Origin: Candidatus Saccharimonadales bacterium
GTDB lineage: Bacteria; Patescibacteriota; Saccharimonadia; Saccharimonadales; UBA4665
DNA: 64,000 bases
Reading direction: 5' to 3'
NCBI GenBank assembly: GCA_035545555.1
Contig: DASZYD010000013.1
Location: 5,725-69,724, forward strand
Made by a program: the position numbers and the translations under genes. Of the stretch, positions 41,301 to 64,000 are shown piece by piece. The first letter of the stretch is position 1; each line of letters starts with the position of its first letter. The notes below the pieces were generated by a model, which worked only from the letters and a program-made list of their open reading frames with translations, was not told the origin of the DNA and did not search any database.

Positions 41301-42188
41301 CTACTGCGCTTCGCTGCGGCTGTTTTCGATGGAGCGGCGGATCATATAGAGTTCGTGCCGCCGGCCAAGCCAAAACGAGGTGAGCAGCAGCGGGATGGCA
41401 ATGAGCATCGGCTGCCAGAGGATTTCGGTCTTGCCCTGCCCGGTGCTGCCTGTGCCGCCGGTTGTCGATACCGAACCGCTGATCGTGCCGTTGGCTACAC
41501 CTACGACTTGCAGATACGCGGTAGTGCCGTTGGCGTCGGTCGCTTTGACCACGATAGTGTAGACGCCCGCCTGCTGGTACGTATGGCTCACGTTGATCAC
41601 CCCAGGGAATGAAACGCTTTTGAGGTCGTTGGCGCTGCCGTCGCCCCAGTCGAAACTGAGTGCGTACGGCCCGGTGCCGCCACTTAGGATAAACGACCAG
41701 TCGAGTGGGCTGCCCGGATCGGCGCCGCGCCGCGCATAGCTGCTGGTGATGGACACGCGCGAGCCAAATTGCGCAAATTGCGCATCATTGAATGTCACGC
41801 TGACGGTATTGGAGTCCGGCCCCTGCTGGTCGAGAGCATCATACACCCGTGCCACCAGGTCGTTGCGCCCGCTGAAGAGGTCAATCTTGAGGCTGTAGCT
41901 GCCGCCTGCACAGACTGCCGAGCCGACAAAAATGTTATTGGAAAAGATCTTAACCAGCAGCCCCGTCTTGCAAAGGCCGCTGACGGTAATCGGCGTGCTG
42001 GTAAATGTCTGCCCGTTGCTTGGCGTGGCAATGGTTGCCGCCTGTGTGGGCGCGGCTGTCGAGACAGTCGCTTCCAAGCCCATCGAGTTCGACTGCGGAT
42101 TGTCGAGCGCGGCGACGGGCGCGGCCAGTAACAGGCACGTCAGCAGAGCCAGTGCACTTGTTCGGGCGATCCATCGACGGTTCATCAC
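41301..42188 (-). CDS. secreted Ig-like + PKD-domain protein with C-terminal TM anchor
   Basis: Has a signal peptide (ALALLTCLLLAAPVAA), the PKD signature FDWGDGSANDL...VSHTYQQAGVYTIVVKATDANG and the C-terminal TM LIAIPLLLTSFWLG. Confidence 0.75.
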   Translation of the reverse strand: MMNRRWIARTSALALLTCLLLAAPVAALDNPQSNSMGLEATVSTAAPTQAATIATPSNGQTFTSTPITVSGLCKTGLLVKIFSNNIFVGSAVCAGGSYSLKIDLFSGRNDLVARVYDALDQQGPDSNTVSVTFNDAQFAQFGSRVSITSSYARRGADPGSPLDWSFILSGGTGPYALSFDWGDGSANDLKSVSFPGVINVSHTYQQAGVYTIVVKATDANGTTAYLQVVGVANGTISGSVSTTGGTGSTGQGKTEILWQPMLIAIPLLLTSFWLGRRHELYMIRRSIENSRSEAQ

Positions 42189-42247
42189 GGTTTTACTGCT
42201 TACGCTCCTGCTTCAACCTTAGCAAACCGGCCAGAAATGGCAAGCCG

Positions 42248-43252
42248 CTAGCGGCGGGTCGCCCTGCGCACCACACGCTGATTGTACCCGCGCATCAGCC
42301 GTGGGAAGCCGAAGATGAAGAACAGGATGATGAGAATGACCGCAAGCACCCCCAAAATACCCCAGATCGGAATGACATAGAATGTCGTTTGGCCGCTGAG
42401 CAATTGGCCGTCCTGGCCGAAGCCAAAGTTGCCCTCCAGCGTGTATTTGCCGAACATGCCTATATGGCTCAAGCTAACGGTGAACTTGCGAACGCTATCC
42501 GGCAACACGTTGCCGCGCGGCGTAGTGTTGTTGATCTCAAATGAGGCCAGCTGCTTTTTGCCCTGCTTGAGCAACAGCTTGCCGAACGGCTGCTCCTGGA
42601 CATCGCCGTCATTCTTAAAACGAATAGCCGCCACCAGGTTCTTGCTGCTCGTAAAGACCACGCTGGAGCTGCCGTTGTCACCCTGCTGCACACTCATGTC
42701 GGTCAGCTGCAAATCCTCCTTAAAATCGCCCGGCACGCGCACCAGGATCAGCGAGGCCACGCTGGCGGACAGCGCCACGCTGCCGCTGCCGCCACTGCTG
42801 GCCGGCGCGAAGCGCACTGCACCGTAGTAGCCGCCGCCCGGGGCATCGCTTGGAATAGTGATCGTCACCCCGACCGACTTTTCCTGCCCGGCAGCAAGCG
42901 TCACATTCGGCACCGGCGCCACGTAGCGCTTGAGGCTATGGCTTGGCGCGTACTGGTTAGGGTTGAGCAGCAGCGCCGGCGTGCCGCTCTCGTCGCCGCT
43001 AGCCGTAAAGTCATTAATAAACACCTGCAGCGTTACCGGTGCCTGTGTCACGTTCTGCACATTCACGGTCACGGTTTGCGACTGTCCGGGGTTGACGGTT
43101 ATGTTGGTGCTAACTGGCGAAATCTTCAGGCCGTTGCCGCCGGCGCTGCCGCTTGTCGCCGCTGCAGCCAGCGGTGACAAGACAGCCGACAACACTAGTA
43201 CTAATCCGGCCAGCAAACTGCTACCAAGCCCGGCGGATGTGCGACGCCTCAT
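42248..43252 (-). CDS. DUF916/DUF3324-like cell-surface protein (CscA-like), C-terminal TM anchor
   Basis: Signal peptide, then ISPVSTNITVNPGQSQTVTVNVQNVT...VTLAAGQEKSVGVTITIPSDAPGGGYYGAVRF (DUF916 grammar). A second beta domain follows, ending in the TM IWGILGVLAVILIILFFIFGF and a basic tail. Assigned from motif grammar, not from a search. Confidence 0.6.
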   Translation of the reverse strand: MRRRTSAGLGSSLLAGLVLVLSAVLSPLAAAATSGSAGGNGLKISPVSTNITVNPGQSQTVTVNVQNVTQAPVTLQVFINDFTASGDESGTPALLLNPNQYAPSHSLKRYVAPVPNVTLAAGQEKSVGVTITIPSDAPGGGYYGAVRFAPASSGGSGSVALSASVASLILVRVPGDFKEDLQLTDMSVQQGDNGSSSVVFTSSKNLVAAIRFKNDGDVQEQPFGKLLLKQGKKQLASFEINNTTPRGNVLPDSVRKFTVSLSHIGMFGKYTLEGNFGFGQDGQLLSGQTTFYVIPIWGILGVLAVILIILFFIFGFPRLMRGYNQRVVRRATRR

Positions 43253-43309
43253 ATCCTCAATCTTCCCCCATGGTTATCTAAAATCTGCTCCATTTATCGT
43301 ACCAAACCG

Positions 43310-44377
43310 CTAGAAGTTTGCCAAACACACATACGTCAGCGTTGTGGCATACACGCCCGGCGCCTGTCCCGTCGGAATATTAATGATGTAGCTGACCGTG
43401 AACTTCCGGTAATCCTGCACTGCCGTGGCCGTCGCGATCGTATCGCCGGAGACAAAGCGGAAGAAGTTTGGTTGCGCATAAGCCGGTGCCGCCGTGGCAG
43501 TGCCGGGCCCGACCGGGTTAGCGCCGACCGACGGCGTCGCGTTTGCCACCAGGTTGATCCCGAACTGGCTGAGCCCGGGCCGCGAGACGTCCGACACAGC
43601 CATGGCGCTTATGATGTTATTGCCCGACGTCATAGTATTGCCGGCCACCTGCATGACATAGCCGGAGCCGGCGTTCGTTGCCGTCAGCAGCTGGCTCTGC
43701 GCGCTGGCCGTAACCCCACCGGTAAGGTTGCCGAAATTGATATAGTTGCCGCTGGCCTGGCCACAGTCAAACCCGCCGATGGTGATGCCGCTGCAAAACA
43801 AGAGATACGGTGGCACGGTGGTAGTAACGCTGATGGCGTTGTTGATATTCATAGCGATGCCGCCGTGATCATTCTCCGCCCCGCTGGCATCAGTACTGGC
43901 AAAGGTTTGCAGGCGTCCGAAAAAGCTGCCCTGACCCGATGGATTCGTAACACCGGCCACTGTATAGCTAACGGTACCAGCCGCTGCCGGCGCTGCCGTA
44001 CGAGTCAGCACGAGGGTGTTTGCATCGGTGCCAGCGCCGTCGATCGAAAAGCCCAGTTCGCCACTCTGCGCGCTCAGCGTAGCACCGGAGATATCAAAGC
44101 CGGCCGGCGCCGGACACGGATCACCAAATAACGGATCGTTCGCACAAAACAGGAGCTTGATCGAACCAAGCGTCTCTGGGGCTGGGATATCAAAACTCAG
44201 TTTGTATGTTGCTGTGGCGCTCGCGACACTATCGCTTAGGGTAACGCTTCGGTTCGGCAACAGCGAGGCCGAGGCGTGCGCCAAGTAGAGGGAGAACAGT
44301 CCCGCCACCACGAGCAGGGCTGCCCCAATCTGTGCGGTCCGAACGCTAAGAACGGTGCTACGCCTTAGGCTGCTCAT
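43310..44377 (-). CDS. secreted beta-rich surface protein, paralogue family member A (355 aa)
   Basis: Has a signal or TM segment. It shares the N-module ATYKLSFDIP...IKLLFCANDPLFGDPCPAPAGF with the next two genes, and the C-module QFGINLVAN...GDTIA...FTVSYIINI...PGVY...F-COOH with the 263-aa protein. Confidence 0.65.
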   Translation of the reverse strand: MSSLRRSTVLSVRTAQIGAALLVVAGLFSLYLAHASASLLPNRSVTLSDSVASATATYKLSFDIPAPETLGSIKLLFCANDPLFGDPCPAPAGFDISGATLSAQSGELGFSIDGAGTDANTLVLTRTAAPAAAGTVSYTVAGVTNPSGQGSFFGRLQTFASTDASGAENDHGGIAMNINNAISVTTTVPPYLLFCSGITIGGFDCGQASGNYINFGNLTGGVTASAQSQLLTATNAGSGYVMQVAGNTMTSGNNIISAMAVSDVSRPGLSQFGINLVANATPSVGANPVGPGTATAAPAYAQPNFFRFVSGDTIATATAVQDYRKFTVSYIINIPTGQAPGVYATTLTYVCLANF

Positions 44378-44395
44378 TCATTCTATTGTAGCGTA

Positions 44396-45619
44396 CTAGA
44401 ACGTACCGGTGGCGATGAGCGATTCGCTGCCAAGATAGACGCCGGCCGGAGTAGTGTTGGCAGCAGTAGCTACGAACTCAAGCGTATTTGCCTCATTGCT
44501 GACGGCACCGGTACCAGAAAAGACTTGACTGCCGAACGTGGATGTCGTACCCGTTGTGTTGTTGCCATCCATGCCATAAAGGCTCGTAGCATTATAGGTT
44601 GCGGGGCAACTATTGGCCGTGTCGCTATAGGCTGCAGCGACGGTCGTATTGGCGCCCTTGTTAACGCACATCCCCCATGCACCAGCCCCTGCCGTAAGCG
44701 TAGTAGCATTACCGGTCAATATATTCCCTATTATAGGACAGGTCGTACCGCCATCCGAGCTAAGTCCTCCATTAGTGCACGTGTTGCCTGCTTTCATGCG
44801 TACTACCCATCCGCCGTTTGCATTCGTTGATAGCTGTGTATTAACACCCGCTATATCAACCTGCGTGGCCGTCAAGACGGTTGCTGAGCCCACGGTGTGG
44901 CCGAGCGTAATCGACGGAGCAGTCAGGGAGCCGCCACAGGTTCCCGTAATGGTTGCCGTAGTTACGCAGAACGTCATGGTTTCCTCGACCGTAGCAGTAA
45001 CGTTGATCAATGCCGCAGTGCTGAGGGCGACACCGCCTGAGTCTACGACACCCGTTGAGCCGCCGGCAGTATAACTGTCAGCATGTGCCTTCGTATCATA
45101 GGTGTACATTCGGGCATAGAAGGAGTGATTGGCTGCCACGTTCGGGTTAGTAACATTCGTTACGCTGAAGGATACGGCGCAAGGCGTCGTAGTGACGTTG
45201 ATGGCTGAAGCGGCTGATAACTCTAGCGTATGCGCGCCCGCAGCAGTACCGGTAGTGACGGTAAAGGTAGAGATGTTACAACCGGCTGTAGTGGACTGAC
45301 CAGTAACCGTTGGCGAAGCGATGGAGAAGCCGCTTGGTGCCGTGCAGGTCGTATCGGCCAATAGTGGGTCGTTATCGCAAAAGTCGACGATGATAGCCTG
45401 GATACTGGGGCTACCGGTAGAAATTGTATTAAACGAAAACTTGTACGTCACACCCGTCGCGCCGGCCGTGGCGTTGCTCATTTCTATGCTTCGAGACGTG
45501 ACCTGTGCAGCAGTAGCCGTCCCGTTCAAGACAAGCGGTACGCCCGCCGCCAGGGCCAATATAACTGCCGCCACTACTGCATAGAGGTTGCGCGAAAGCC
45601 CCTGCATGCGTTTTTTCAT
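44396..45619 (-). CDS. secreted beta-rich surface protein, paralogue family member B (407 aa)
   Basis: Has a signal peptide. The N-module is VTYKFSFNT...IIVDFCDNDPLLADTTCTAPSGF and the C-module is EETMTFCVT...TPAGVYLGSESLIATGTF-COOH. An AT-rich putative promoter region lies at 45620-45737. Confidence 0.65.
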   Translation of the reverse strand: MKKRMQGLSRNLYAVVAAVILALAAGVPLVLNGTATAAQVTSRSIEMSNATAGATGVTYKFSFNTISTGSPSIQAIIVDFCDNDPLLADTTCTAPSGFSIASPTVTGQSTTAGCNISTFTVTTGTAAGAHTLELSAASAINVTTTPCAVSFSVTNVTNPNVAANHSFYARMYTYDTKAHADSYTAGGSTGVVDSGGVALSTAALINVTATVEETMTFCVTTATITGTCGGSLTAPSITLGHTVGSATVLTATQVDIAGVNTQLSTNANGGWVVRMKAGNTCTNGGLSSDGGTTCPIIGNILTGNATTLTAGAGAWGMCVNKGANTTVAAAYSDTANSCPATYNATSLYGMDGNNTTGTTSTFGSQVFSGTGAVSNEANTLEFVATAANTTPAGVYLGSESLIATGTF

Positions 45620-45737
45620 ACTTTTTGCTATCCTTCTAGTTTTTGTATGTTCAAAGGTATCGCTCAGATCTTAGCATGTTAACCTGGAGCCTTGCAATAA
45701 AGCGTAAGGACTTATCCACAAGAATCTTAACAGAGAA

Positions 45738-48557
45738 TTAAAACGTGCCGGTCGCCACGAGAGAGTAGGCCCCAATATAGATCCCGGCTGGGGTGGTGGA
45801 TGAGGCGCTGGCGGCGAAGGTCACTATGTCGTTCTCGTTGTCTAGCGCGCCGCTGCTGGTAAAGACCGGGCTGCCGTATGCGCTTCTGACGCCTGTGGCT
45901 GTAGCATCGTCCAGGCCGTAGGCAGTACCGCTGCCGCAACTGGCGCCATTGTACGGTGCCTGCACGGTAATGCTGCCGCTGCCGGCCTGCACGCATACGC
46001 CGACAGCCGCCGTCCCGGCCGACAGCGTCGTCGCGCTACAGCTACCGCCACAGGATGTGTTGATGGCCGGGACGCCGCACGAGCTCCCGCCGTTGCTGCT
46101 CAGGCCGCCACAGCTGGCGCCGACGCGCACCATACGAACGGTCACGCCGCTCCCCGCGTTGGTCGATGTTTGCGTATAGGCGTCGGCCGTATCGACACTG
46201 CTGCTGTTGAGCACCGGCGGCGAGCCGTGCCCAAGCGTCAGGCTGGCCGGCGACAGACCGGTGCAGTTGGCGCTGATACTGCCGCCCGATACGCAAAACG
46301 TAATCGCCTCCGGCACAACAAAGGTCAGAGCGATCCCGTCGCCGGTGGAGAGGGCCATACCGCCATGATCGACCGAATCCGCCAGGTTGCCCGAGCGGGT
46401 TGTACCCGAAACGGTGTACTCGCCGGTCATATTGCCAGCGGTGTTGAAGGTGATGACACGCGCATAAAACGAGTGGTTGGCCGCCGCCGGGTTTGTCGCC
46501 GTGGTGATAGTGAAATCGATGGGCGTGCCGGTCGAAACTGTCTGTGGCGTCGCGTTGGACAATTCCAGTACCTGTGACTTTCCGGCTGCCGCCCCACCTT
46601 GCACCCCGGCTGCTGTCCAGCCGCTGCCCATGCCGCCGTTTACCGTCAGGCTCGGGCTCGCGCCGCCCCAGTCGAAGCTGGCCGGATAGGTGCAGGCAGC
46701 GTCGTTGAAAACGGGGTCATTGTCGCACATATCGACGACGATACCGCCGATGGGGGTGTTGATGGTGGGCGTAAAGACCACTTCGTAGCTGACGTTTGCC
46801 GCGCCAGGTGTCGAGGTGGTCATAGTCACACTGCGGCCCGTCGCTTGCGCATGATACTCGGGGATCAACACGACCGTGCCGTTCCCGGCCGCCGCACCCA
46901 AGTGGTTCGTCCCGGCTAGGGCAGCATGTGCCGCATCAAGCGTATTCCCGGTCCACGAGTTGGTGAGGTAGCGTATAGCAATCCGGCCGCCGCCGCCAGC
47001 TGCGCCGCCACAACCGGTAGCGCCGTTACCGCCGTTGGCGCTCATCGATCCGGATCCGGTGAACGTGTTCACATCAAGATATAGGCTGCCGCCCGAGCCA
47101 GCTGACGCGTTACATCCGCTGGCATTCGTCCCGTTGGCTGTCAGTGAGCCGTTAACGGTAAGCGTTCCATTCACCACCAACTTGATAGCACCGCCGCCGG
47201 CCGTGCCGGGGCCATTACTGTCGGAACCGCCGCCCGATCCAAGATCAAGTGGCGAAGAAGCCGACCCATAGGTGCTGCTGTTGCCGTTACCTCCGATGCC
47301 ACCATATGCACCACCTTTGGAGGTATTAACACCACCAGCCCCGCCGCCGGGGCCGACACCGTTAATCGACGTCGTTGTGCCGCCCGGATAGCCGAGCCCG
47401 TCGGCCGATATCGCGCTCGTCGCCGGCACCGTCACGTTGCCCCCAACAGTGATGGTTACCCCTGTGCCGTTTGTACTCGTCGTATTCGAGCCGCCAGCCG
47501 ATAGTGTTACTCCGGAAGCCAACGTTAGCGCATCGCTCACCGTCAATGTAAAAGCTGCTGCGCTGGCTGAAGAGAACGTCACATTCGCATTGACTGTCAC
47601 ATCGTGATACGAGAATGCCGTTTCGTCAGTCGAACGCCATGTGCCGTTGATTGCCGGAATAGTCAGATCATTCGTTCCCGTGCGCAGGATATACGCCGTA
47701 CCGTAGCCGGCAGCCGTACCGTTATGGGTAGCGCCCGGCGCAGCCGAGACAGTACCGCTAAATGTTGGCGCGTTCGTTGAGTTGAGCGAAATACGGCCGC
47801 CACCACCCGCTGCGCCGCCACAACCGGTAGCGCCGTTACCGCCAGCCACCGTAACGGTACCCGCGCCAGCGAGCGTACCGGCTATTGCCCAAATGCTGCC
47901 GCCTGAGCCGCCGGCGACGTTACATCCTGATGGTGAGCCGCCGGCGGCTGTTACAGTGCCGCTTACCGTAAGGGTACCCGAAGTGACAAGCTTAATCGCA
48001 CCGCCGCCGTTACCGGCCGGGTTGCCGTTATTGTCATAACCGCCGCCGCTTCCCATATTGGTCGGGGAGAAAATAGACCCGTAGACGGCGCCACTGCCGG
48101 CATGGCCCGCCGGGTTGCCGCCAAAACCGCCATAGCCGGCGCCGCCCGCATTATTCGTGCCGCTCCAGCCAGCACCCGGCCCTTCAGCTGTCGGCGTGCC
48201 CGAGGACCCGCCGCGGTAGCCCTTGGCATCCGCCGTCAGCGTACCGACAATACTTATCGATGTTGCGTCAATCTCCACACTGCCGTAACTGGAGCCATTA
48301 TACGCCTGTACGGTCGCCGTCTCGCCCGTGCCGATGGTTAGAGTGCCGACATTCGTATGCACGCCGGCGATGCCGCCGGGACAATCGGTGGCCGGGTCCC
48401 AGCTGGCGCCGCCATGGTCACCGCCGTTGAGACAGGTATACGAGGCACCCGCCCGGCGCTGATACAGCACCAGCGCGCCGGCCACGACCAGCACTGCCAC
48501 GACCGACAGCGCTACTACACGTATAACTCTCACCCTACGCATAAGCATTAGCTTCAA
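45738..48557 (-). CDS. large secreted surface protein: duplicated Gly-rich beta-helix-like module + paralogue family C-terminal part (939 aa)
   Basis: N-terminal TM or signal segment, two ~155-aa Gly-rich modules 270 aa apart, then VSYEVVFTPT...IVVDMCDNDPVFNDAACTYPASF ... EAITFCVS ... TPAGIYIGAYSLVATGTF-COOH. Confidence 0.7.
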   Translation of the reverse strand: MKLMLMRRVRVIRVVALSVVAVLVVAGALVLYQRRAGASYTCLNGGDHGGASWDPATDCPGGIAGVHTNVGTLTIGTGETATVQAYNGSSYGSVEIDATSISIVGTLTADAKGYRGGSSGTPTAEGPGAGWSGTNNAGGAGYGGFGGNPAGHAGSGAVYGSIFSPTNMGSGGGYDNNGNPAGNGGGAIKLVTSGTLTVSGTVTAAGGSPSGCNVAGGSGGSIWAIAGTLAGAGTVTVAGGNGATGCGGAAGGGGRISLNSTNAPTFSGTVSAAPGATHNGTAAGYGTAYILRTGTNDLTIPAINGTWRSTDETAFSYHDVTVNANVTFSSASAAAFTLTVSDALTLASGVTLSAGGSNTTSTNGTGVTITVGGNVTVPATSAISADGLGYPGGTTTSINGVGPGGGAGGVNTSKGGAYGGIGGNGNSSTYGSASSPLDLGSGGGSDSNGPGTAGGGAIKLVVNGTLTVNGSLTANGTNASGCNASAGSGGSLYLDVNTFTGSGSMSANGGNGATGCGGAAGGGGRIAIRYLTNSWTGNTLDAAHAALAGTNHLGAAAGNGTVVLIPEYHAQATGRSVTMTTSTPGAANVSYEVVFTPTINTPIGGIVVDMCDNDPVFNDAACTYPASFDWGGASPSLTVNGGMGSGWTAAGVQGGAAAGKSQVLELSNATPQTVSTGTPIDFTITTATNPAAANHSFYARVITFNTAGNMTGEYTVSGTTRSGNLADSVDHGGMALSTGDGIALTFVVPEAITFCVSGGSISANCTGLSPASLTLGHGSPPVLNSSSVDTADAYTQTSTNAGSGVTVRMVRVGASCGGLSSNGGSSCGVPAINTSCGGSCSATTLSAGTAAVGVCVQAGSGSITVQAPYNGASCGSGTAYGLDDATATGVRSAYGSPVFTSSGALDNENDIVTFAASASSTTPAGIYIGAYSLVATGTF
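46968..47435 (-). repeat. intragenic repeat copy 2 (aa ~375-530)
   Basis: The peptide is ...GGGAIKLVVNGTLTVNGSLTANGTNASGCNASAGSGGSLY...GGNGATGCGGAAGGGGRIAI, offset exactly 810 nt from copy 1. Confidence 0.85.
47778..48245 (-). repeat. intragenic repeat copy 1 (Gly-rich module, aa ~105-260 of the 939-aa protein)
   Basis: The peptide ...GGGAIKLVTSGTLTVSGTVTAAGG.PSGCNVAGGSGGSIW...GGNGATGCGGAAGGGGRISL parallels copy 2. An exact 34-nt match is found at 47810-47843 and 47000-47033. Confidence 0.85.
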
Positions 48558-48600
48558 CTATAGTGAAGCGCCAACCTGCGATCAAGCCGCCGGCCGGACG

Positions 48601-49392
48601 CTAAAAGGTACTGGTCGCCACCAGCACATGGTCCATGGTGTAGGTGCCGCCAGGCGTTACATTGCTGATGTTGATGAGGTATGAAATGGTAAAATCGGTC
48701 TCGCCAGAGCTCTTGGTCGCATGGGCGATCGTATCGCCGTTGTGATATTTAAACTGGCATGCTGTATCATACCCGCTTGCCGCCGCGCCGAAGCTAAACG
48801 TGGCATCGGGCACCTGGACAGGATTGGCGCCCAGGCTGGCAGGCAAACCGCCGCCGCAGCTGCTATTCGCCACCAAGTTGATGCCGAACTGCTCGGTTGA
48901 CGGATTTGAAGGCCCGGCAGACGACATGGCTGTCAGCAGGTGGGCGCCGTTGGCGGGCGGGTCAGCGGCGGTCACTACCTGATAGCCGCTGGCAAGGTAT
49001 GTCTTGACTGAGAAGTGAGCCAGGCCGGTGGCCGGGGTGCCGGGGCTCAATGTGCCAAGGTTAATGTTCGTGCTCGTCACTACAAATGTCAGTGACGGCG
49101 TACGGTCGGTATTGAATCCCGCCTGGGCCTGATAATTCGTGCTGGATGAGTTGCCCACGCCCGTTTCTCCGACCGAGACTTTGGCGCAATAGTTGGTAGA
49201 CTGCTCGGAGCCGCTCTGGCCGGGATCGCAGAGTGCCCCGCCGTTTCCCAGGAAGGCCTCACTTACCCCGTAGCCGCCCGAACAACTCTGCTGACCGGTA
49301 CTGCACGCCGCTGCGCCACCGGCGTCCATGCCGGCCAGCGCCGCGACCATGGCAATTGCCAGCACCAGTTTTATACACAGCTGACGCCTCAT
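48601..49392 (-). CDS. secreted beta-rich surface protein, short paralogue (263 aa)
   Basis: Signal peptide, a Cys-rich N-segment, then LTFVVTSTNINLGTL...QFGINLVAN...GDTIAHAT...FTISYLINI...PGGTYTMDHVLVATSTF-COOH. This matches the C-module of the 355-aa protein. Confidence 0.65.
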   Translation of the reverse strand: MRRQLCIKLVLAIAMVAALAGMDAGGAAACSTGQQSCSGGYGVSEAFLGNGGALCDPGQSGSEQSTNYCAKVSVGETGVGNSSSTNYQAQAGFNTDRTPSLTFVVTSTNINLGTLSPGTPATGLAHFSVKTYLASGYQVVTAADPPANGAHLLTAMSSAGPSNPSTEQFGINLVANSSCGGGLPASLGANPVQVPDATFSFGAAASGYDTACQFKYHNGDTIAHATKSSGETDFTISYLINISNVTPGGTYTMDHVLVATSTF

Positions 49393-49458: not shown

Positions 49459-50520
49459 ATGCTTAAGGTATATGCTCATCAGCTAATCGATGCAGCACTA
49501 ACAGATATGGACGCCGGCAACAATCCCAATTCGGCCGATGACAGCTCACTCGAGGGCTCGACCACCGTCGTAGAGCCCACAGCGGGCAGTCCTGTCGTAC
49601 CCGGTGCACCCGCCGCTGCCCCGGGGCAGCCAGCCGGCGACACGGCTACGCCTCCGACATCGCAACCCAAACGCCGCTTTTCGCTACGGTATCTTTTCCG
49701 TCGATTCAATATCTATTTGCTGGCGTTCATCCTCCTGCTCGTAGTTGCAGGCGTCGTAGGTACTATCTTCTACCTCAAATCGCAGAACGGCACCATCGGC
49801 AGCAATGTCCCCTCGCAGGCGCTGACACAAGACGAGCTGAACCAACTCGCCAACAGTGATGTAAGCGTGGGCGAGCCGCAGCACACCCTGAATGTCCAAA
49901 GCAATGCCGTCTTTGCCGGCAGCGTGCTGATGCGCGGCAACCTGCAGATCGCCGGTACTTTGCAAGTAGGCAATAACTTGGCCATCAACGGCGTGCGCGT
50001 CACCGGCAACAGCACGTTCGACGATGTGCAGATCACCCACTCGCTGTCGCTTACCGGCAACGCGTCAATCCAGGGGCAGCTCAATGTGCAGAGCAATCTG
50101 GGCGTCAATGGCACCGGCACGTTCCAGGGGGCGCTGTCCGCGCCGTCGATCACCGTGAGCGCGCTGCAGCTCAACGGCAACCTGAACCTGACTCACCACA
50201 TTACGGCCGGCGGCGGCACGCCGGCGCGCAGCAACGGCTCAGCACTGGGCGGCGGCGGCACGGCGACTGTCAGCGGGTCTGACACGGCCGGATCAGTCAA
50301 CATCAACACCGGCAGTAGCCCCGGTGTCGGCTGCTTCGTGACGATCACCTTTGCTAGTGCGTTCAACAGCACACCGCATATCGTAATCACGCCGGTCGGC
50401 GCGGCAGCCGCCGGCATCGACTATTACATTACCCGCACTACCACTACCTTCAGTATTTGTACCACCTCTGCCGCACCGGGCGGCACCTCATTCGGCTTCG
50501 ACTACCTCGCGTTCGACTAA
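49459..50520 (+). CDS. N-terminally TM-anchored fibre-like protein with beta-helical repeats and a conserved ~110-aa C-terminal domain
   Basis: Disordered N-terminus, the TM segment IYLLAFILLLVVAGVVGTIFYL, short repeats (NLQIAGTLQVGNNLAINGVRVTGNSTF...LSLTGNASIQGQLNVQSNLGVNGTGTF), and a C-terminal domain shared with the 61380..63443 protein. Confidence 0.65.
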   Translation: MLKVYAHQLIDAALTDMDAGNNPNSADDSSLEGSTTVVEPTAGSPVVPGAPAAAPGQPAGDTATPPTSQPKRRFSLRYLFRRFNIYLLAFILLLVVAGVVGTIFYLKSQNGTIGSNVPSQALTQDELNQLANSDVSVGEPQHTLNVQSNAVFAGSVLMRGNLQIAGTLQVGNNLAINGVRVTGNSTFDDVQITHSLSLTGNASIQGQLNVQSNLGVNGTGTFQGALSAPSITVSALQLNGNLNLTHHITAGGGTPARSNGSALGGGGTATVSGSDTAGSVNINTGSSPGVGCFVTITFASAFNSTPHIVITPVGAAAAGIDYYITRTTTTFSICTTSAAPGGTSFGFDYLAFD

Positions 50521-50574: not shown

Positions 50575-50904
50575 TTACACTTCCAGAAACACGGTGACGA
50601 CATTGCTGTGGACCTGCATCACGCCGCCGGAAATCTTGATGCGAATCTCGCCTTCTTTGGTCTGCAGCACCAAATCGGACGAATTGAGCAGCGTGATGAA
50701 GTTGCGATGCCGCGGCAGAATATCGAACGCGCCGGTGCCGTTCACGCCGGACACACTGACCGCCTCGGCGTCGTAGAAGACCCGGAATGGCGACCAGACT
50801 TTGACATGCAACAGATCGTCAGCTGGTTTGGCAGCCTGCTTTGCGCCGGCCGGTTCGTCAACGGCGACCAACTGGCCCGTGCTGGCGTCGGTGCGCATTG
50901 CCAC
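50575..50904 (-). CDS. F-type ATPase epsilon-like subunit (beta-sandwich domain only)
   Basis: LLHVKVWSPFRVFYDAEAVSVSGVNGTGAFDILPRHRNFITLL..SDLVLQ...GEIRIKISGGVMQVHSNVVTVFLE parallels the AtpC N-domain (L.V.IV.P...F......V..P...G..GILP.H.P......G...I.......V.GGF.EV..N.V.IL). It has no C-terminal helical hairpin. Confidence 0.7.
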   Translation of the reverse strand: MAMRTDASTGQLVAVDEPAGAKQAAKPADDLLHVKVWSPFRVFYDAEAVSVSGVNGTGAFDILPRHRNFITLLNSSDLVLQTKEGEIRIKISGGVMQVHSNVVTVFLEV

Positions 50905-50930
50905 GGCCTAGAGTCTCCTCACACTGCACA

Positions 50931-53091
<2,161 letters not shown>

Positions 53092-53119
<28 letters not shown>

Positions 53120-53245
53120 GAGACAAACCCTTGCAGGGTTTTTCTCATCGGAGCTGGCGGAGTGAATCCGCCTCCCGTCTGCGACGGGACCGCCCTTGCT
53201 CTTTTCCCAAATAACCGGCTACTGATCATTTCCGTACCTCTTGGG
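53092..53245. repeat. exact 20-bp direct repeat (53092-53111 and 53226-53245) bracketing a 114-bp hairpin-rich intergenic insert
   Basis: TCATTTCCGTACCTCTTGGG occurs twice. On the coding strand it contains GGTACGGAAATGA, which is the alpha stop at one copy and the gamma ATG region at the other. The spacer holds three stem-loops: GAGACAAACCCT/AGGGTTTTTCTC, GGCGGA/TCCGCC and TCCCGTC/GACGGGA. Confidence 0.85.
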
Positions 53246-54653
53246 TGCTGGCGGTGAGGAGTTCGTCGCGTATCTGGTCGAACTGGCTATCGTCGGTCAT
53301 CTTGGCGCCGATACCCAGGGCATTCTTTTTGAGCGTCTTGATGTCGAGCACCTGGCCGTCTTTCAGATTGAGCACGATGTCCAGCATGAGCAGCTGGCTG
53401 TTGACCGAGTAGACTTCATCAGGTGCCTGGTTGAAGAGTTCGATGATGCGCTTGCCGCGCTGCAGGTCCTTTTGCGCTTCCAATGCCAGCTCGGAGCCGA
53501 AATGCGAGAACTCCTGCGCTTGCGCGTAGGCGTTAAGCGTCGAGATCGTCTGCGCCGCCAGCTGTTTCTGGCGCCTGTTTTGGCCCAAGCCGCCGACGCG
53601 CGTGACGCTGAGGCCCGTGCTGACCGCCGGCCGCATCGATTCACGGAACGTCTTCATATCCAAAATCCACTGCCCGTCGGTGATGGACATGATATTGGTC
53701 GGCAGATATCCGGTGATATCACCATCCGATGCCAGCACAATAGGCAGCGCCGTGAGCGTTTTGTGATTCGCCTTGAGCTTGCCGGCCCGTTCAAGCAGGC
53801 TGGAGTGTGCATAGAACATGTCGCCCGGGTACGAATCCCGGCCCGGCGCGCTGCCCGTGAGGAGCGCGATCTCTCGGTAGGTGTAGGCGTGACTGGTGAG
53901 GTCGTCGTAAATGATCATCACATCTTGGTCACACTTCTGCCAGAGATATTCGCCCATGGCGCAGGCCACGTACGGCGCCAGATAGCTTGTCACCAGCGAC
54001 TCAAACGTCGTCGAGACAATGACGATGGCATGCTTCATGGCATCGTTGGCAGCCAGCTTGCTGAGCAGCAGGTCAACATCGCTGCGCCGCTTGGAAATAA
54101 GCACATAGATGGCGACCACATCAGAGTCTTTTTGGTTGAGCGCCAGCTGGTAGGCCAAGGTGCTCTTGCCGGACTTGCTGTCGCCCAGCACGGCCAGGCG
54201 CTGGCCGCGCACCAGCGGGAAGAGCTCATCCAATACCATCAGGCCGGTCACCAGTTGCCTGTCCAGCGCCTCGCGCTCCTGCAGGCCCGGCGCGGCGTTA
54301 AAGACCGGCCACGTCGTATCGGCCGCAATCGGCCCCTTGCCGTCAAGCGGCTCGCCGGTTACCGAAATGACCCGGCCGATAAAATCTTTGCCTACTTTGC
54401 TGACCAGTTCGTGGTGCTGTACCACCGCCATCATGCCGGCGTGCAGGACGTTCACGCCCAGGTGGAGCACCACCACCCGGTCCTCCAGAATGTGGCGGAC
54501 AAAGCCTTTGCTGCCGTCCTCAAACATGACCAGTGCATTGACGTTCACCGGCTGCAAGCCGCGTACCTGCACCATAAATTTATCGACGGTAATCACTTCG
54601 CCGACGGGGCGGCTGCTTTCTACCAGATGGTCGAAGTGCGGATTGTCACTCAT
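53226..54653 (-). CDS. F1 ATPase alpha-like subunit (divergent, 475 aa)
   Basis: Carries P-loop GDSKSGKST (canonical GDRQTGKT), [17 protein letters not shown] (YDDLSKQAVAYR), [39 protein letters not shown] and [16 protein letters not shown] (Arg-finger context). Confidence 0.85.
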
Positions 54654-55209
54654 GCATGGCCTCCGCCGACACCGTAGCCATGGGTGCGGCTGCTGCAGCG
54701 GGGGCGTCGGCCGCGGCAGCTACCAGGCTATCGACCAACAGCTGCCGGTGGTCCTGCAAGTAGCGCCGCAGCGACAGATCAAAGTACTGGTTAGTGGTCT
54801 GTACCGTGCAGCCGGCCGCAATGCTGGGCTGCAAACCGACACGGATCAATACCGCCGGATGGATAGTTTGGCGGAACCACTGCACGATCTTCTGCAAAAA
54901 GGCCGATGATGGGTCAACCGCAAAACTCATATGTACCACCGGCGCCTGCGCGGTCGTATCTTGCAAAAAAGCTGCCAGCCGGGCGCGCGCAGCCGCGTCA
55001 AGAAGGTTCAGCCCGTTCGCCGCCGCCAGCTCATCGAGCATACGGCTGACTTTGGGCAGCTGCGCCTGCGTGGTGCCTGGGGTCCGCAGCGCCTGCTGGT
55101 GCAAGTAGTCGCTCAGTGCTGCCACCTCGCGCTTGAGGCGCGATACATCAGCCGGGGAGGTCACCAGCAACGGTAGCGTCAGAGTGCCGGGGATGGTCGT
55201 ATGTTCCAT
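54646..55209 (-). CDS. F-type ATPase delta/OSCP-like subunit (only the C-terminal domain recognisable)
   Basis: [22 protein letters not shown]...[32 protein letters not shown] parallels the AtpH C-domain (...VDPSLIGG..V..GD.V.D.S....L). It sits between the b-like and alpha-like genes, overlapping the alpha start. Confidence 0.6.
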
Positions 55210-61379: not shown

Positions 61380-63443
61380 TCACTGCAGAACGTGGTAGTA
61401 GTAGTCGTACGTCGTGTTCGGAGCGGGAGCGGTGCCGGATGCGATCGTAAAGGTGGTGGTCGTTGCCGTAGCGCCGTACTGCAATGCCGCGCCAGCGGTC
61501 CCCTCCGGCGTGAGCACAACGATGGGCGCGGTGCTAAACGGCGCCGCAAACGTTACCGTAGCAAGCGTACCGGCAGCACACGGGCTGTTACCGGTCGTGA
61601 TGCTCACCGCCCCAGCCGTATCATCGCCGGTGACGCTGACGGTTGCCGTACTGCTACAGTCGGCAGCACTGCCGGAGACTGCCGTCGTCGTTCCGGTGGG
61701 ATTGCCTGTAATGATGTGACCATCGACTGTCAGCGTACCGGACACGACCAAACTCTTTACGGTCAGCACCATAGTGGTCGTGTCTGCCACTAATAGCGGC
61801 GTGCCGGCAGCATTTTGAACCTGGAATGCTACGGCACTGTCGGTCCGCACCCTCGCCGTACCACTTACATCTAAGGTGTATTGCGGGTTATCGTTTGCGA
61901 TACCTACATTACCGGAAGCAGCAATGGTAAGCCGGTCGGTGAACGGGTCCGCTGTGGTATTCGGAATCTGGTTGATCGGCACGGTGTAGTCGACATAGTC
62001 AGATTGGTTATTGCCGGTGATAAGGGTCCAGGTCATGGTGGTCGTACCAGGCTGGCCGGGCTGGTTTGAGCTCAGGCCGCCCAACGGATCATTCCATGTC
62101 AAGGTCTGACCGGAGCCGGGGGTTGGACCGCCGAAGTGATCACCTACAATAAAATCGGTGATCAATTGCGACGGCTGGCTGGCAATCGTCACCGATGTGG
62201 TAGCGGCAGTACCAATCTGCGTCTGTGCAGTGCCGAATGGCGTCGACTGGTCGACGTTATAAAAGCTGGCGGCGTCAAATGTGAAGAAGTCTGCCCCTGT
62301 CAACGTTACGGCCAGCGTATTGCTGCCTGTCGGCGGCGCCAGCATATACCACACCTCGGCATCGCAACCGCTGGGGAAGACAGCTGTCGGACAACTCGCC
62401 GCATGCAGCAGCGTCAGCGGCGTACCGTTATACGTCACTGAGGCGACGCTATGCGTGTTCCCCAGACTCACCTGCACCATCAATAGACGGTTCAGGTTTG
62501 AGCCGACAACAAGCGTCGTTGAGGCACTGAGGCTCGGACTAAACGGCGAGCCGCCACTGGCCGTAGAATCAACCGTCACCGGCGTCTGTTGCGCCGCCGC
62601 GGTACGGAAAACGATATTGCCCGATCCGCCGGCACCTGTGCCGTTCGAGGCGTCAATATGTATGTCACTGCCGGTTACATTGTTGCCGCTGGCCGCGCCG
62701 CCACGCAGCGTCATCAGGCTCGTCGTGCCATCATTGCCCAACACGACAGCCGTGTTGACCGTGTCAGCCGTTAAAAGGTTCACGCCGCTGGCGTTTTGTA
62801 CTTGTAGCGCCGCCGTACTGTTCGCTTTTACGAGTGCCGTACCGGCTGCAAGAGTATCAGCGGTGAGATTTGTCGCCGTGCCGGTGCCCGAAATGGTGAA
62901 ATTACCAGCGTCAGCCGTGCCTGGCGTACTCGCCTGTAAATGCACAAAAGAGCCGCCAGGCGTGGTCGTGCCGCCGCCGGTTGTCGTAAAGACATTGTTC
63001 GTGATAAACGTATTACCGCCGCCCTGCACAAGATTGACGAATTTCGTGCCGTCGTAGTAGCGGAGCTGGCCTGCGGTTGCATCAACGTAGAGCTCGCCGG
63101 CTACCGGCGAAGCCGGTTCCTCCCCGGGAAGGAGGATAAGGCCGTCACTAACATATGCCTGGCCGTGTACGTTCAGCCGGCCCACGCCTGTCGCCGGCGG
63201 CGCACTGGTAAGTTCCGGGAGCTCAGCTGATGGTATTGCCGACGCGCGATACTGCGCAACGTCGAAGCCCGTCAGCGTCGTTTGGCCGTGGCCGCCGAAC
63301 ATCCGGCTGACCCACAGCACAGCAAGGACCGCTAGGGCAACCAGCAGGACAACGAGCCCAATCGCCCACATCCACCGCGGCATAGGGCGCGGCGGCTGTG
63401 CTGCTGGGCTGGGATACCGCGAAACGATATTATTGGGACCCAT
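61380..63443 (-). CDS. N-terminally TM-anchored tail-fibre-like surface protein (688 aa) with conserved C-terminal domain
   Basis: The start is set at the ATG at 63443, after a GGAG RBS; the track start at 63557 would overlap the upstream gene. The TM segment is WAIGLVVLLVALAVLAVLWV. Motifs typical of phage tail-fibre-like proteins are present (GNVGIANDNPQYTLDVSGTARV; AFQVQNAAGTPLLVADT; ALQVQNASGVNLLTADT). The C-terminal ~115 aa are homologous to the C-terminus of 49459..50520. Confidence 0.7.
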   Translation of the reverse strand: MGPNNIVSRYPSPAAQPPRPMPRWMWAIGLVVLLVALAVLAVLWVSRMFGGHGQTTLTGFDVAQYRASAIPSAELPELTSAPPATGVGRLNVHGQAYVSDGLILLPGEEPASPVAGELYVDATAGQLRYYDGTKFVNLVQGGGNTFITNNVFTTTGGGTTTPGGSFVHLQASTPGTADAGNFTISGTGTATNLTADTLAAGTALVKANSTAALQVQNASGVNLLTADTVNTAVVLGNDGTTSLMTLRGGAASGNNVTGSDIHIDASNGTGAGGSGNIVFRTAAAQQTPVTVDSTASGGSPFSPSLSASTTLVVGSNLNRLLMVQVSLGNTHSVASVTYNGTPLTLLHAASCPTAVFPSGCDAEVWYMLAPPTGSNTLAVTLTGADFFTFDAASFYNVDQSTPFGTAQTQIGTAATTSVTIASQPSQLITDFIVGDHFGGPTPGSGQTLTWNDPLGGLSSNQPGQPGTTTMTWTLITGNNQSDYVDYTVPINQIPNTTADPFTDRLTIAASGNVGIANDNPQYTLDVSGTARVRTDSAVAFQVQNAAGTPLLVADTTTMVLTVKSLVVSGTLTVDGHIITGNPTGTTTAVSGSAADCSSTATVSVTGDDTAGAVSITTGNSPCAAGTLATVTFAAPFSTAPIVVLTPEGTAGAALQYGATATTTTFTIASGTAPAPNTTYDYYYHVLQ

Positions 63444-63516
63444 GTTTGTTTCTCCACAGCGCTCACCCGGTGGCTGCCGCTTATGCTGTTCGTGAATATT
63501 ATATACATATGGACCG

Positions 63517-64000
63517 TTAGCGCAATGTAAAGTACAGCACAACAGCCGCAACCGCAACGATAAGGCAGGCAGTTGCCATCACCTGCGTCAGCGTACGCAG
63601 GATTGAGCGGCGTGCCAGGGGGTTCCGGCCCATTGCAACAATACTGGCATGGATAGCGCCATAGATCAGGGCTATGAGCGCACCGACCGACACAACCGCG
63701 ATAACAAAGCTCAGCACGGCGCGCAACGCCGAAACCTGGTGGCCGGCAACAACTGCCGCGACCGACTGTAGGTTGGCGATCACGCCAGATTGTTCGGACG
63801 CCGCTATGCCCGATCCGACCAGAATCGCTACCGGGATTGAGCCGACATGTACGGTCTGTGTCCCGCCGGCAACCTTTGGCACCTGATAGGTTACCGGCGA
63901 CGTGCCCGCAGAGAAGTCCGCTTCAGCAGTACCGATTGTGTACAAACCAACCGCCGCCTTCATCCCAATGCCCGCTATCGGCGAGACCGATATACGATCG
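63517..64000 (-). CDS. second paralogue of the secreted-domain + c-subunit-like hairpin protein (5' end outside window)
   Basis: The frame stays open to the window edge (...DRISVSPIAGIGMKAAVGLYTIGTA, compare GDYITISALNGVGMKADNSQIIVLGKA in 55868..56713). It shares GSIPV..LV and the C-terminal hairpin ...ALIALIYGAIHASIVAMGRNPLARRSILRTLTQVMATACLIVAVAAVVLYFTLR. Confidence 0.65.
   Translation of the reverse strand, partial: DRISVSPIAGIGMKAAVGLYTIGTAEADFSAGTSPVTYQVPKVAGGTQTVHVGSIPVAILVGSGIAASEQSGVIANLQSVAAVVAGHQVSALRAVLSFVIAVVSVGALIALIYGAIHASIVAMGRNPLARRSILRTLTQVMATACLIVAVAAVVLYFTLR

Follow-up and report, generated by a model that had tools for sequence, protein, structure and literature searches.

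The Pam pilus, described in June 2026 from Candidatus Mycosynbacter amalyticus, is a filament of two-domain pilins, PamA and PamB, that cryo-electron microscopy (cryo-EM) showed to be joined by donor-strand exchange, with the inter-domain linker strand of one subunit filling the open C-terminal immunoglobulin (Ig)-like domain of its neighbor (bioRxiv 10.64898/2026.03.03.709456). AlphaFold predictions in the same preprint suggested roles for the remaining components, namely two chaperones anchored by a transmembrane (TM) segment (PamC and PamD), a minor pilin (PamE), a single-domain tip protein (PamT), and an RbmA-like tether (PamR). PamB, PamR, PamD, PamE, PamA, and PamT correspond to QHN43269 to QHN43274 in its proteomics table, with masses of 38.7, 32.8, 37.4, 38.6, 55.3, and 25.6 kDa, respectively. 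The pam neighborhoods contain ATP synthase genes and a "tail fibre-like" gene, which is central in the neighborhood network, and no trans-envelope machinery was reported (bioRxiv 10.64898/2026.03.03.709456). Here we analyze a 64,000-nucleotide stretch, referred to as the window, of contig DASZYD010000013.1 (assembly GCA_035545555.1) from a Candidatus Saccharimonadales bacterium, a metagenome-assembled genome (MAG) from the Candidate Phyla Radiation (CPR). Six genes at positions 41301-49392 of this window very probably make up a Pam pilus operon that works by chaperone-assisted donor-strand exchange.

Two further systems serve as points of comparison. In Firmicutes, Csc/WxL clusters encode a WxLIP protein (CscA), a small WxL protein (CscB), a large WxL protein (CscC), an LPXTG protein (CscD), and often a sortase. 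Such a cluster is defined by at least two WxL-domain proteins (PF13731), and AlphaFold predicts that one strand of the WxLIP completes the β-sandwich of the WxL domain (PMC10599100). The same principle, donation of a strand to a client's incomplete β-sandwich, is proposed for the Pam chaperones. The chaperone-usher pili (Pap/Fim, CFA/I, Csu, and Caf1) share with Pam an assembly by donor-strand complementation and exchange, in which the subunits are incomplete Ig-like domains, as well as a two-Ig chaperone fold, but the Pam system has neither an outer membrane nor an usher, its chaperone is membrane-anchored, and its donor strand is the inter-domain linker rather than an N-terminal extension. 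An initial annotation, made from the letters of the window, had read the six genes as a distant, W-less csc/WxL-like complex that might build a surface layer or an attachment fiber.

The six open reading frames (ORFs) follow one another on the minus strand, separated by gaps of 18-118 bp, and encode proteins of 295, 334, 355, 407, 939, and 263 amino acids. A hydrophobic signal-like segment is present at the start of all six products, which agrees with the initial annotation of six consecutive secreted or TM proteins; each ORF was found where that annotation had placed it. Three of the pilin-like proteins are referred to below by their length in amino acids (p355, p407, and p939), as is the chaperone-like protein, p334. 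From the first to the last gene of the operon, the features are as follows.

48601..49392, minus strand: PamT, single-domain tip pilin, 263 amino acids; matches NF058579 and NF058581; first operon gene.
45738..48557, minus strand: putative PamA-class pilin with an N-terminal extension, 939 amino acids (p939); pilin core paralogous to p407.
44396..45619, minus strand: putative PamA-class shaft pilin, 407 amino acids (p407), comprising an N-module, a linker, and a C-module; assigned by paralogy and gene position.
43310..44377, minus strand: PamE-like pilin, 355 amino acids (p355); matches NF058581; adjoins the chaperone gene; position and size as for PamE.
42248..43252, minus strand: PamD-like membrane-anchored chaperone, 334 amino acids (p334), of the WxLIP family (DUF916/DUF3324/TM); assigned by PF06030, hhalign, and Foldseek.
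41301..42188, minus strand: PamR, RbmA-like pilus terminator and membrane tether, 295 amino acids; matches NF058578 and PF00801; last operon gene.

Family calls were made with NCBIfam release 20 and with Pfam at gathering scores. Both ends of the operon match curated equivalogs of the Pam system: the first product scores 283.8 bits against NF058579 (CPR_pilus_PamT; cutoff 240), covering residues 26-263, and the last scores 396.9 bits against NF058578 (CPR_pilus_PamR; cutoff 300). The pilin domain model Pam_pilin_C (NF058581; cutoff 55) matches p355 at 162.2 bits and PamT at 156.6 bits. The PamR protein contains two Ig-like/PKD domains and a C-terminal hydrophobic anchor at about residues 256-275, and its match to PF00801 (28.5 bits versus a cutoff of 23.5) confirms the earlier description of a PKD protein. 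The gene order of the window, PamR-chaperone-p355-p407-p939-PamT, is colinear with PamR(QHN43270)-PamD-PamE-PamA-PamT(QHN43274) of M. amalyticus, and the sizes match. Gene order, size, and the NCBIfam models together suggest that p334 is PamD-like, that p355 is PamE-like, and that p407 and p939 are PamA-class. The locus belongs to an already described system and is to be grouped with the Pam pili rather than with the WxL clusters. As an outcome against its reading, the initial annotation had named a lack of DUF916/DUF3324 similarity in p334 together with paralogues that resolve to a characterized family; by NCBIfam the locus resolves to the Pam pilus, and the DUF916/DUF3324 similarity of p334 was confirmed, as described below.

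The similarities to the M. amalyticus system extend over most of the locus. Both have PamT and PamR equivalogs, Pam_pilin_C domains, two-domain pilins, a TM-anchored two-Ig chaperone, the order PamR-PamD-PamE-PamA-PamT, neighboring ATP synthase and tail-fibre-like genes, and a CPR/Saccharimonadia lineage. The window differs in having no PamB/PamC pair, a single chaperone, and two PamA-class paralogues. Compared with the 55-kDa PamA of M. amalyticus, p407 is smaller, and p939 is much larger and carries a glycine-rich N-terminal module. As to the M. amalyticus gene list itself, Table S1 of the preprint gives pamC as QHN42421.1 (119 kDa), numbered far from the operon, and the unnamed QHN43268.1 (36.5 kDa) directly precedes pamB. 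The latter fits a chaperone better than QHN42421.1 does, and the pamC entry may be a labeling slip.

Several points weigh against the assignment of the whole operon to Pam. The p407 protein scores 26.6 bits against Pam_pilin_C, below the cutoff of 55, although its match has an E-value of 5e-6 and spans model positions 5-148 of 148; p939 has no direct Pfam or NCBIfam match. Neither p407, p355, nor the p355 family profile matched any Protein Data Bank (PDB) sequence, in a copy of the PDB that holds no Pam structures. No PamB-like gene and no second chaperone (PamC) was found in the 64-kb window or in the 80 related loci described below, and the clade would therefore build a simpler or different fiber than the solved one. 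For this organism the operon is known from its sequence, and both the order in which the fiber is assembled and the function of PamR as its anchor derive from the AlphaFold predictions of the preprint.

The assignment of p407 and p939 as putative Pam pilins draws on their gene position and on paralogy among the four pilin-like proteins. In BLASTP searches with composition-based statistics, p407 aligns to residues 553-939 of p939 with 39% identity over 399 residues (E 2e-35), the N-module of p355 matches p407 (E 4e-15) and p939 (E 1.5e-7), and residues 110-263 of PamT align to residues 213-355 of p355 with 36% identity (E 7e-16). A profile comparison with hhalign joins the PamA-type C-modules to the PamT/E-type C-modules (Prob 97.9%, E 3.9e-13, 161 columns). 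Because of the BLASTP paralogy and this link between the two C-module types, the C-module is common to all four pilins.

These relationships largely match the modules that had been recognized by eye in the initial annotation. The N-module that it placed in the 355-, 407-, and 939-residue proteins is found in all three, with the motif [FM]C.NDP.{4,7}C..P..F at p355:77, p407:80, and p939:610, and the segment QFGINLVAN...GDTIA...SY.INI, which had been described as common to p355 and the 263-residue protein, is present in both. The shared C-module likewise stands, although the terminal P-(A/G)-G-x-Y strand is not strictly kept in all four proteins, p355 deviating slightly: the C-termini read PAGVY...ATGTF, PAGIY...ATGTF, PGGTY...ATSTF, and APGVY...CLANF.

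PamT combines a signal-like N terminus and a Cys-rich N-terminal part with a C-module at residues ≈105-263. The layout of p355 is an N-terminal β-sandwich (residues ≈43-178), a conserved linker (residues 186-200), and a C-module (residues ≈205-355), and its AlphaFold2 model has a mean predicted local distance difference test (pLDDT) score of 89. Among the pilins it is the most conserved; across its orthologues the most conserved segments are residues 263-277, the C-terminal strand at residues 341-355, and the linker. Conservation of the linker and the C-terminal strand fits the preprint, in which PamA and PamB are most strongly conserved in the linker that is donated and in the site that binds it. 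The p355 family has 936 detectable homologues, with a length of ≈350 residues among those listed; for p407, clustering at 50% leaves 726 representatives with E ≤ 1e-3.

The chaperone-like protein p334 consists of two Ig-like domains (residues ≈42-150 and ≈166-293) and a C-terminal TM segment at about residues 289-322. Its AlphaFold2 model (pLDDT 84) shows two β-sandwich domains and a long C-terminal helix at residues 296-333. The initial annotation had proposed DUF916 plus DUF3324 with a TM anchor, and three lines of evidence uphold this. First, p334 matches PF06030 (DUF916) at 41.4 bits versus a cutoff of 27.3, as do all 38 orthologues tested; DUF3324 (PF11797) was not detected by Pfam at E ≤ 1. 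Second, the p334 profile aligns to that of six Firmicutes WxLIPs with an hhalign Prob of 97.8% (E 7e-13); the 261 aligned columns take in DUF916 and DUF3324 and reach the TM helix. Third, the best Foldseek matches of the p334 model are two structures of an Enterococcus faecium WxLIP, one of the protein alone (9i1y_A, E 5.7e-12) and one of the protein bound to a long WxL protein (9i25_C, E 1.7e-11), which align to the model over 276-283 columns and both domains. The WxL test set began from part of the EfmWxLIP1 sequence, taken from a PDB alignment, which led to seven Firmicutes csc/WxL loci on plasmids of Enterococcus, Lactococcus, and Lactiplantibacillus plantarum and from these to WxLIP and WxL alignments. 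One representative of each alignment was checked with Pfam and carries the expected domains, the WxLIP having PF06030 and PF11797 and the WxL protein PF13731. A literature search found no publication describing 9i1y and 9i25, and the text of the Pam preprint mentions neither WxL nor DUF916.

The next Foldseek matches of the p334 model are the chaperone-usher chaperones CfaA, SafB, DraB, Caf1M, and CsuC (E 1e-8 to 1e-6), and a CfaE-CfaB fusion is among the Foldseek matches of the p355 model. Both would suit a pilus of a classical kind, be it chaperone-usher, sortase-dependent, or type IV, yet no usher, sortase, LPXTG, or prepilin motif occurs in the genes scanned, and no usher-like gene was found in the operon or its scanned neighbors. 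Sequence similarity to the chaperone-usher system was likewise not detectable: p334 scores 12.5 bits against PapD_N in Pfam (E 0.14), its profile aligns to E. coli FimC with an hhalign Prob of 1%, and the pilin gave nothing against FimA. The latter two are weak single-sequence controls, in that a single WxLIP also reaches only Prob 7.6% (E 0.0046). We regard a classical pilus as extremely unlikely. Carried by the Pfam scores and the Foldseek ranking, p334 is closer to the WxLIPs than to PapD-type chaperones. Judged by its sequence, the Pam chaperone is a WxLIP, and it resembles PapD and FimC in structure only; homology of the Pam and WxLIP chaperones is essentially shown.

Within p334, residues 150-175 (PASSGGSGSVALSASVASLILVRVPG) join the two Ig-like domains and have the lowest model confidence in the folded part of the protein (pLDDT 57-70). 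Nine positions of PASSGGSGSVALSASVASLILVRVPG are invariant or nearly so, namely L161, S164, S167, L168, L170, V171, V173, P174, and G175. The segment is a candidate donor strand, with the pattern expected of a strand that becomes ordered only on client binding.

The kinship of the chaperone raises the question of whether its clients are WxL proteins, that is, whether the locus encodes a Csc/WxL-type complex in which the WxLIP would keep W-less, WxL-like proteins that do not polymerize attached to the cell wall, forming an adhesive layer and no pilus. A bona fide WxLIP homologue in p334 speaks for such a complex, as do the modeled strand with which a Firmicutes WxLIP is predicted to complete the WxL β-sandwich (PMC10599100) and a parallel layout, with a small single-domain client, large clients that have adhesive domains at the N terminus, and a partner anchored in the membrane or to the wall. 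The clients themselves did not match. At E ≤ 1, Pfam detected the WxL domain (PF13731) in none of the four pilins; when the p355 family was compared with seven WxL proteins, hhalign gave Prob 2%, and profiles of the C-module only reached E 0.2-0.9; and the 50 Foldseek matches listed, of 1,234, for the p355 model do not include the solved WxL chain, 9i25_A. Two pairs of motifs, TNAGSGY.V.V with RG.N.GW.L.V and PGVY.TTLTYV with A..Y.TTLTW.L, fall in the same order in Pam and WxL proteins, which is a lead without statistical support. None of the cluster proteins contains a W-x-L or LPXTG motif, no ORF of the window has LPXTG near its C terminus, and no sortase was found among the genes scanned. 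PamT and PamR, furthermore, are equivalogs from a system whose pilin filaments have been seen by cryo-EM. On balance we consider a non-polymerizing Csc/WxL-type complex unlikely. The initial reading of a W-less csc/WxL-like complex thus holds for the chaperone family, p334 being a WxLIP, and fails for the pilins, which have no detectable WxL domain and are accompanied by neither LPXTG protein nor sortase.

Set against Csc/WxL, then, the Pam locus has in common a chaperone whose homology to WxLIP extends across DUF916, DUF3324, and the TM helix. It differs in that its anchor is the TM protein PamR rather than an LPXTG protein with a sortase, in that its clients are not detectable WxL proteins, and in that it yields a polymer instead of a complex bound to peptidoglycan.

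Using two conserved peptides of the chaperone as queries, we scanned species-representative genomes, one for each GTDB species, and confirmed relatives of the chaperone at 266 places. The best 80 loci were kept, two of the contigs coming from one MAG; the M. amalyticus locus lies outside these 80. Most of the kept loci are labeled Saccharibacteria or Saccharimonadales, a few "bacterium" or "Patescibacteria group," and one "Bacillota." We counted a locus as complete when PamT, a PamE-like gene, the chaperone, and PamR were all present (n = 54). The order T-A(1-2)-E-D-R is found in all 54 complete loci, with PamT as the first and PamR as the last operon gene in every one. A single PamA-class gene is present in 43 of them and two in the other 11, encoding proteins of 362-491 residues. 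The compact form, with one chaperone and without PamB, predominates in Saccharimonadales. A tblastn search of plasmids with the chaperone returned one marginal actinomycete match only.

The constancy of this order bears on the reading of the cluster as a set of independent paralogous secreted adhesins or S-layer-like proteins, with p334 an Ig-like surface protein and not a chaperone. Foldseek matches of the p355 model are compatible with that idea: among the 50 listed of 1,234 (E ≤ 10) are generic tandem-Ig proteins, mostly of the adhesin type (MSCRAMMs, AgI/II, Als), with weak E-values (1e-5 to 1e-3) and low TM-scores, and the p939 module occurs in large surface proteins of other phyla. A set of independent adhesins is nonetheless hard to reconcile with a strict gene order in which a tip-type, a base-type, a chaperone, and an anchor gene each occur once in 54 of 54 loci, with the conservation of the C-terminal strand and linker, with the curated equivalog matches, or with the resemblance of the chaperone to WxLIPs and chaperone-usher chaperones, and we judge it very unlikely. 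Of the two products that the initial annotation had considered, the attachment fiber is retained and the surface layer is not; the fimbrial-like G-x-Y...aromatic C terminus that it had pointed out fits a donor-strand-exchange pilus.

Two observations concern individual related loci. In the one labeled "Bacillota bacterium" (L078; DATIJU010000009.1, 140,840 bp) the pam operon is complete and its chaperone shares 47% identity with p334; the label is probably a taxonomic error or the contig a mis-binned Saccharimonadales contig. In six loci (L030, L062, L067, L070, L078, and L080), 1.5-2.7 kb lie between PamT and the first recognizable PamA-like gene, with no Pam paralogue detectable by BLAST; these gaps may hide divergent pilin or adhesin genes at the position of p939.

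The p939 protein, which the NCBI record of this MAG (tags VHC98_*) gives as hypothetical protein VHC98_01260 (p334 is entered there as "DUF916 domain-containing protein"), is a pilin core with a large addition at its N terminus. Its parts are as follows.

45741-46901, minus strand: p939 pilin core, residues 553-939; 39% identity to p407.
46902..48557, minus strand: p939 signal-like segment plus glycine-rich extension; repeats at residues 184-286 and 454-560.
46902-48437, minus strand: p939 glycine-rich repeat module alone, residues ≈41-552.

The extension comprises ≈510 residues, of which 25% are Gly, and its internal repeats share 54% identity over 107 residues (E 3e-8). Nearly all of the best database matches of p939 (118 of 120) share only the glycine-rich module, and four proteins among those matches also share the pilin core; in one of these, P0125 (1135 residues), three repeats can be made out by eye. 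The module-bearing proteins are large surface proteins, and the few with a named source belong to Planctomycetota, Verrucomicrobiota, Bdellovibrionia, and cyanobacteria. Long pilins of this kind are rare: a p939-type module occurs in one of the 80 related loci (L003), and only four among the 150 best relatives of p407 are longer than 500 residues. Because Pam pilins donate an internal linker and not their N terminus, an N-terminal fusion should be tolerated and should project from the fiber. The p939 gene adjoins that of PamT, and we infer that p939 may be an adhesin-bearing, possibly tip-proximal pilin. A parallel exists in the large WxL proteins of Firmicutes, whose N-terminal adhesive domains are of the MucBP, leucine-rich repeat (LRR), or pectate-lyase-like type, much as the glycine-rich module sits on the pilin core of p939. 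In the WxL loci on an E. faecalis plasmid (L085) and an E. mundtii plasmid (L087), the gene after the WxLIP or WxL gene encodes a pectate-lyase-like adhesive protein or an MucBP/LRR protein ending in a WxL domain.

Taken together with the M. amalyticus work, these results suggest how the Pam pilus of this organism would be assembled. Gene identity, paralogy, the fold and family of the chaperone, and operon conservation come from the present analysis. All six proteins would be exported by Sec, and the C-terminal end of each pilin would be an incomplete Ig-like C-module whose groove is first occupied by a strand of the membrane-anchored chaperone p334. In a donor-strand exchange such as cryo-EM showed in the PamA/PamB filaments of M. 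amalyticus, the conserved inter-domain linker of the next subunit would then take over that groove. If assembly proceeds as AlphaFold predicted for M. amalyticus, both in its order and in the parts played by PamE, PamT, PamR, and the chaperones, PamT would start the fiber at its tip, PamA-class p939 and p407 would form the shaft, PamE-like p355 would form the base, and PamR would cap the fiber and tether it to the cytoplasmic membrane. The glycine-rich repeat module of p939, whose role we propose here, would be displayed on the shaft, probably for adhesion, and the filament probably mediates contact with the host bacterium.

The surroundings of the operon match those of other pam loci. On the other side of PamT lies a divergent gene:

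49459..50520, plus strand: "tail fibre-like" membrane protein (the preprint's name), 353 amino acids; divergent neighbor of the operon; TM segment at residues ≈81-109; β-helix-like region.

This gene stands beside PamT in 54 of 54 complete related loci. Its product has a weak bactofilin match in Pfam (21 bits, below the cutoff), and a phage tail-fiber identity, considered for it and for p939, received no support from PHROGs. Its C-terminal ≈124 residues are shared with a 725-residue protein encoded 11 kb away (61380-63557, minus strand), at 43% identity (E 5e-13); neither protein has a convincing Pfam or PHROGs match. ATP synthase genes (50575-55209, minus strand) lie directly upstream of the operon on the same strand. 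The delta subunit (54646-55209), the sole subunit scored, has a weak NCBIfam score below the cutoff, and the epsilon, beta, and gamma genes (50575-53119) were assigned by eye from their translations. A long plus-strand ORF at 53241-54677 has no family match; the genuine atpA is probably a minus-strand gene with which it overlaps. Downstream of the operon, ORFs were read as MnmA and AlaRS from their unscored translations. A scan for promoters and terminators gave no enrichment and no clear operon boundaries.

This locus makes two modest but real additions to the preprint: the Pam chaperone is a WxLIP (DUF916/DUF3324) in both sequence and structure, and some Pam pilins have large, glycine-rich repeat modules at the N terminus. 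The kinship of the chaperones links a pilus of the CPR to the Csc/WxL clusters, adhesion loci that are widespread and occur in lactobacilli, enterococci, and Listeria, and it suggests for WxLIP proteins a role as assembly chaperones that donate a strand. A more tentative idea, to which we give limited credence, is that CPR Pam pili and Firmicutes Csc/WxL complexes are two branches of one ancient usher-less system of single-membrane bacteria, in which a WxLIP-type chaperone anchored in the membrane would complete the unfinished β-sandwich of each client and the Pam C-module would be a W-less, polymerizing relative of WxL; homology of the clients is without statistical support, in contrast to that of the chaperones. 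Were there such a common system, WxL clusters might also assemble by strand exchange. The glycine-rich modules are candidate host-recognition domains along the fiber or near its tip. A locus that was formerly part of the "dark matter" of the CPR can now be named as a Pam pilus, probably a filament with which the cell reaches its host.

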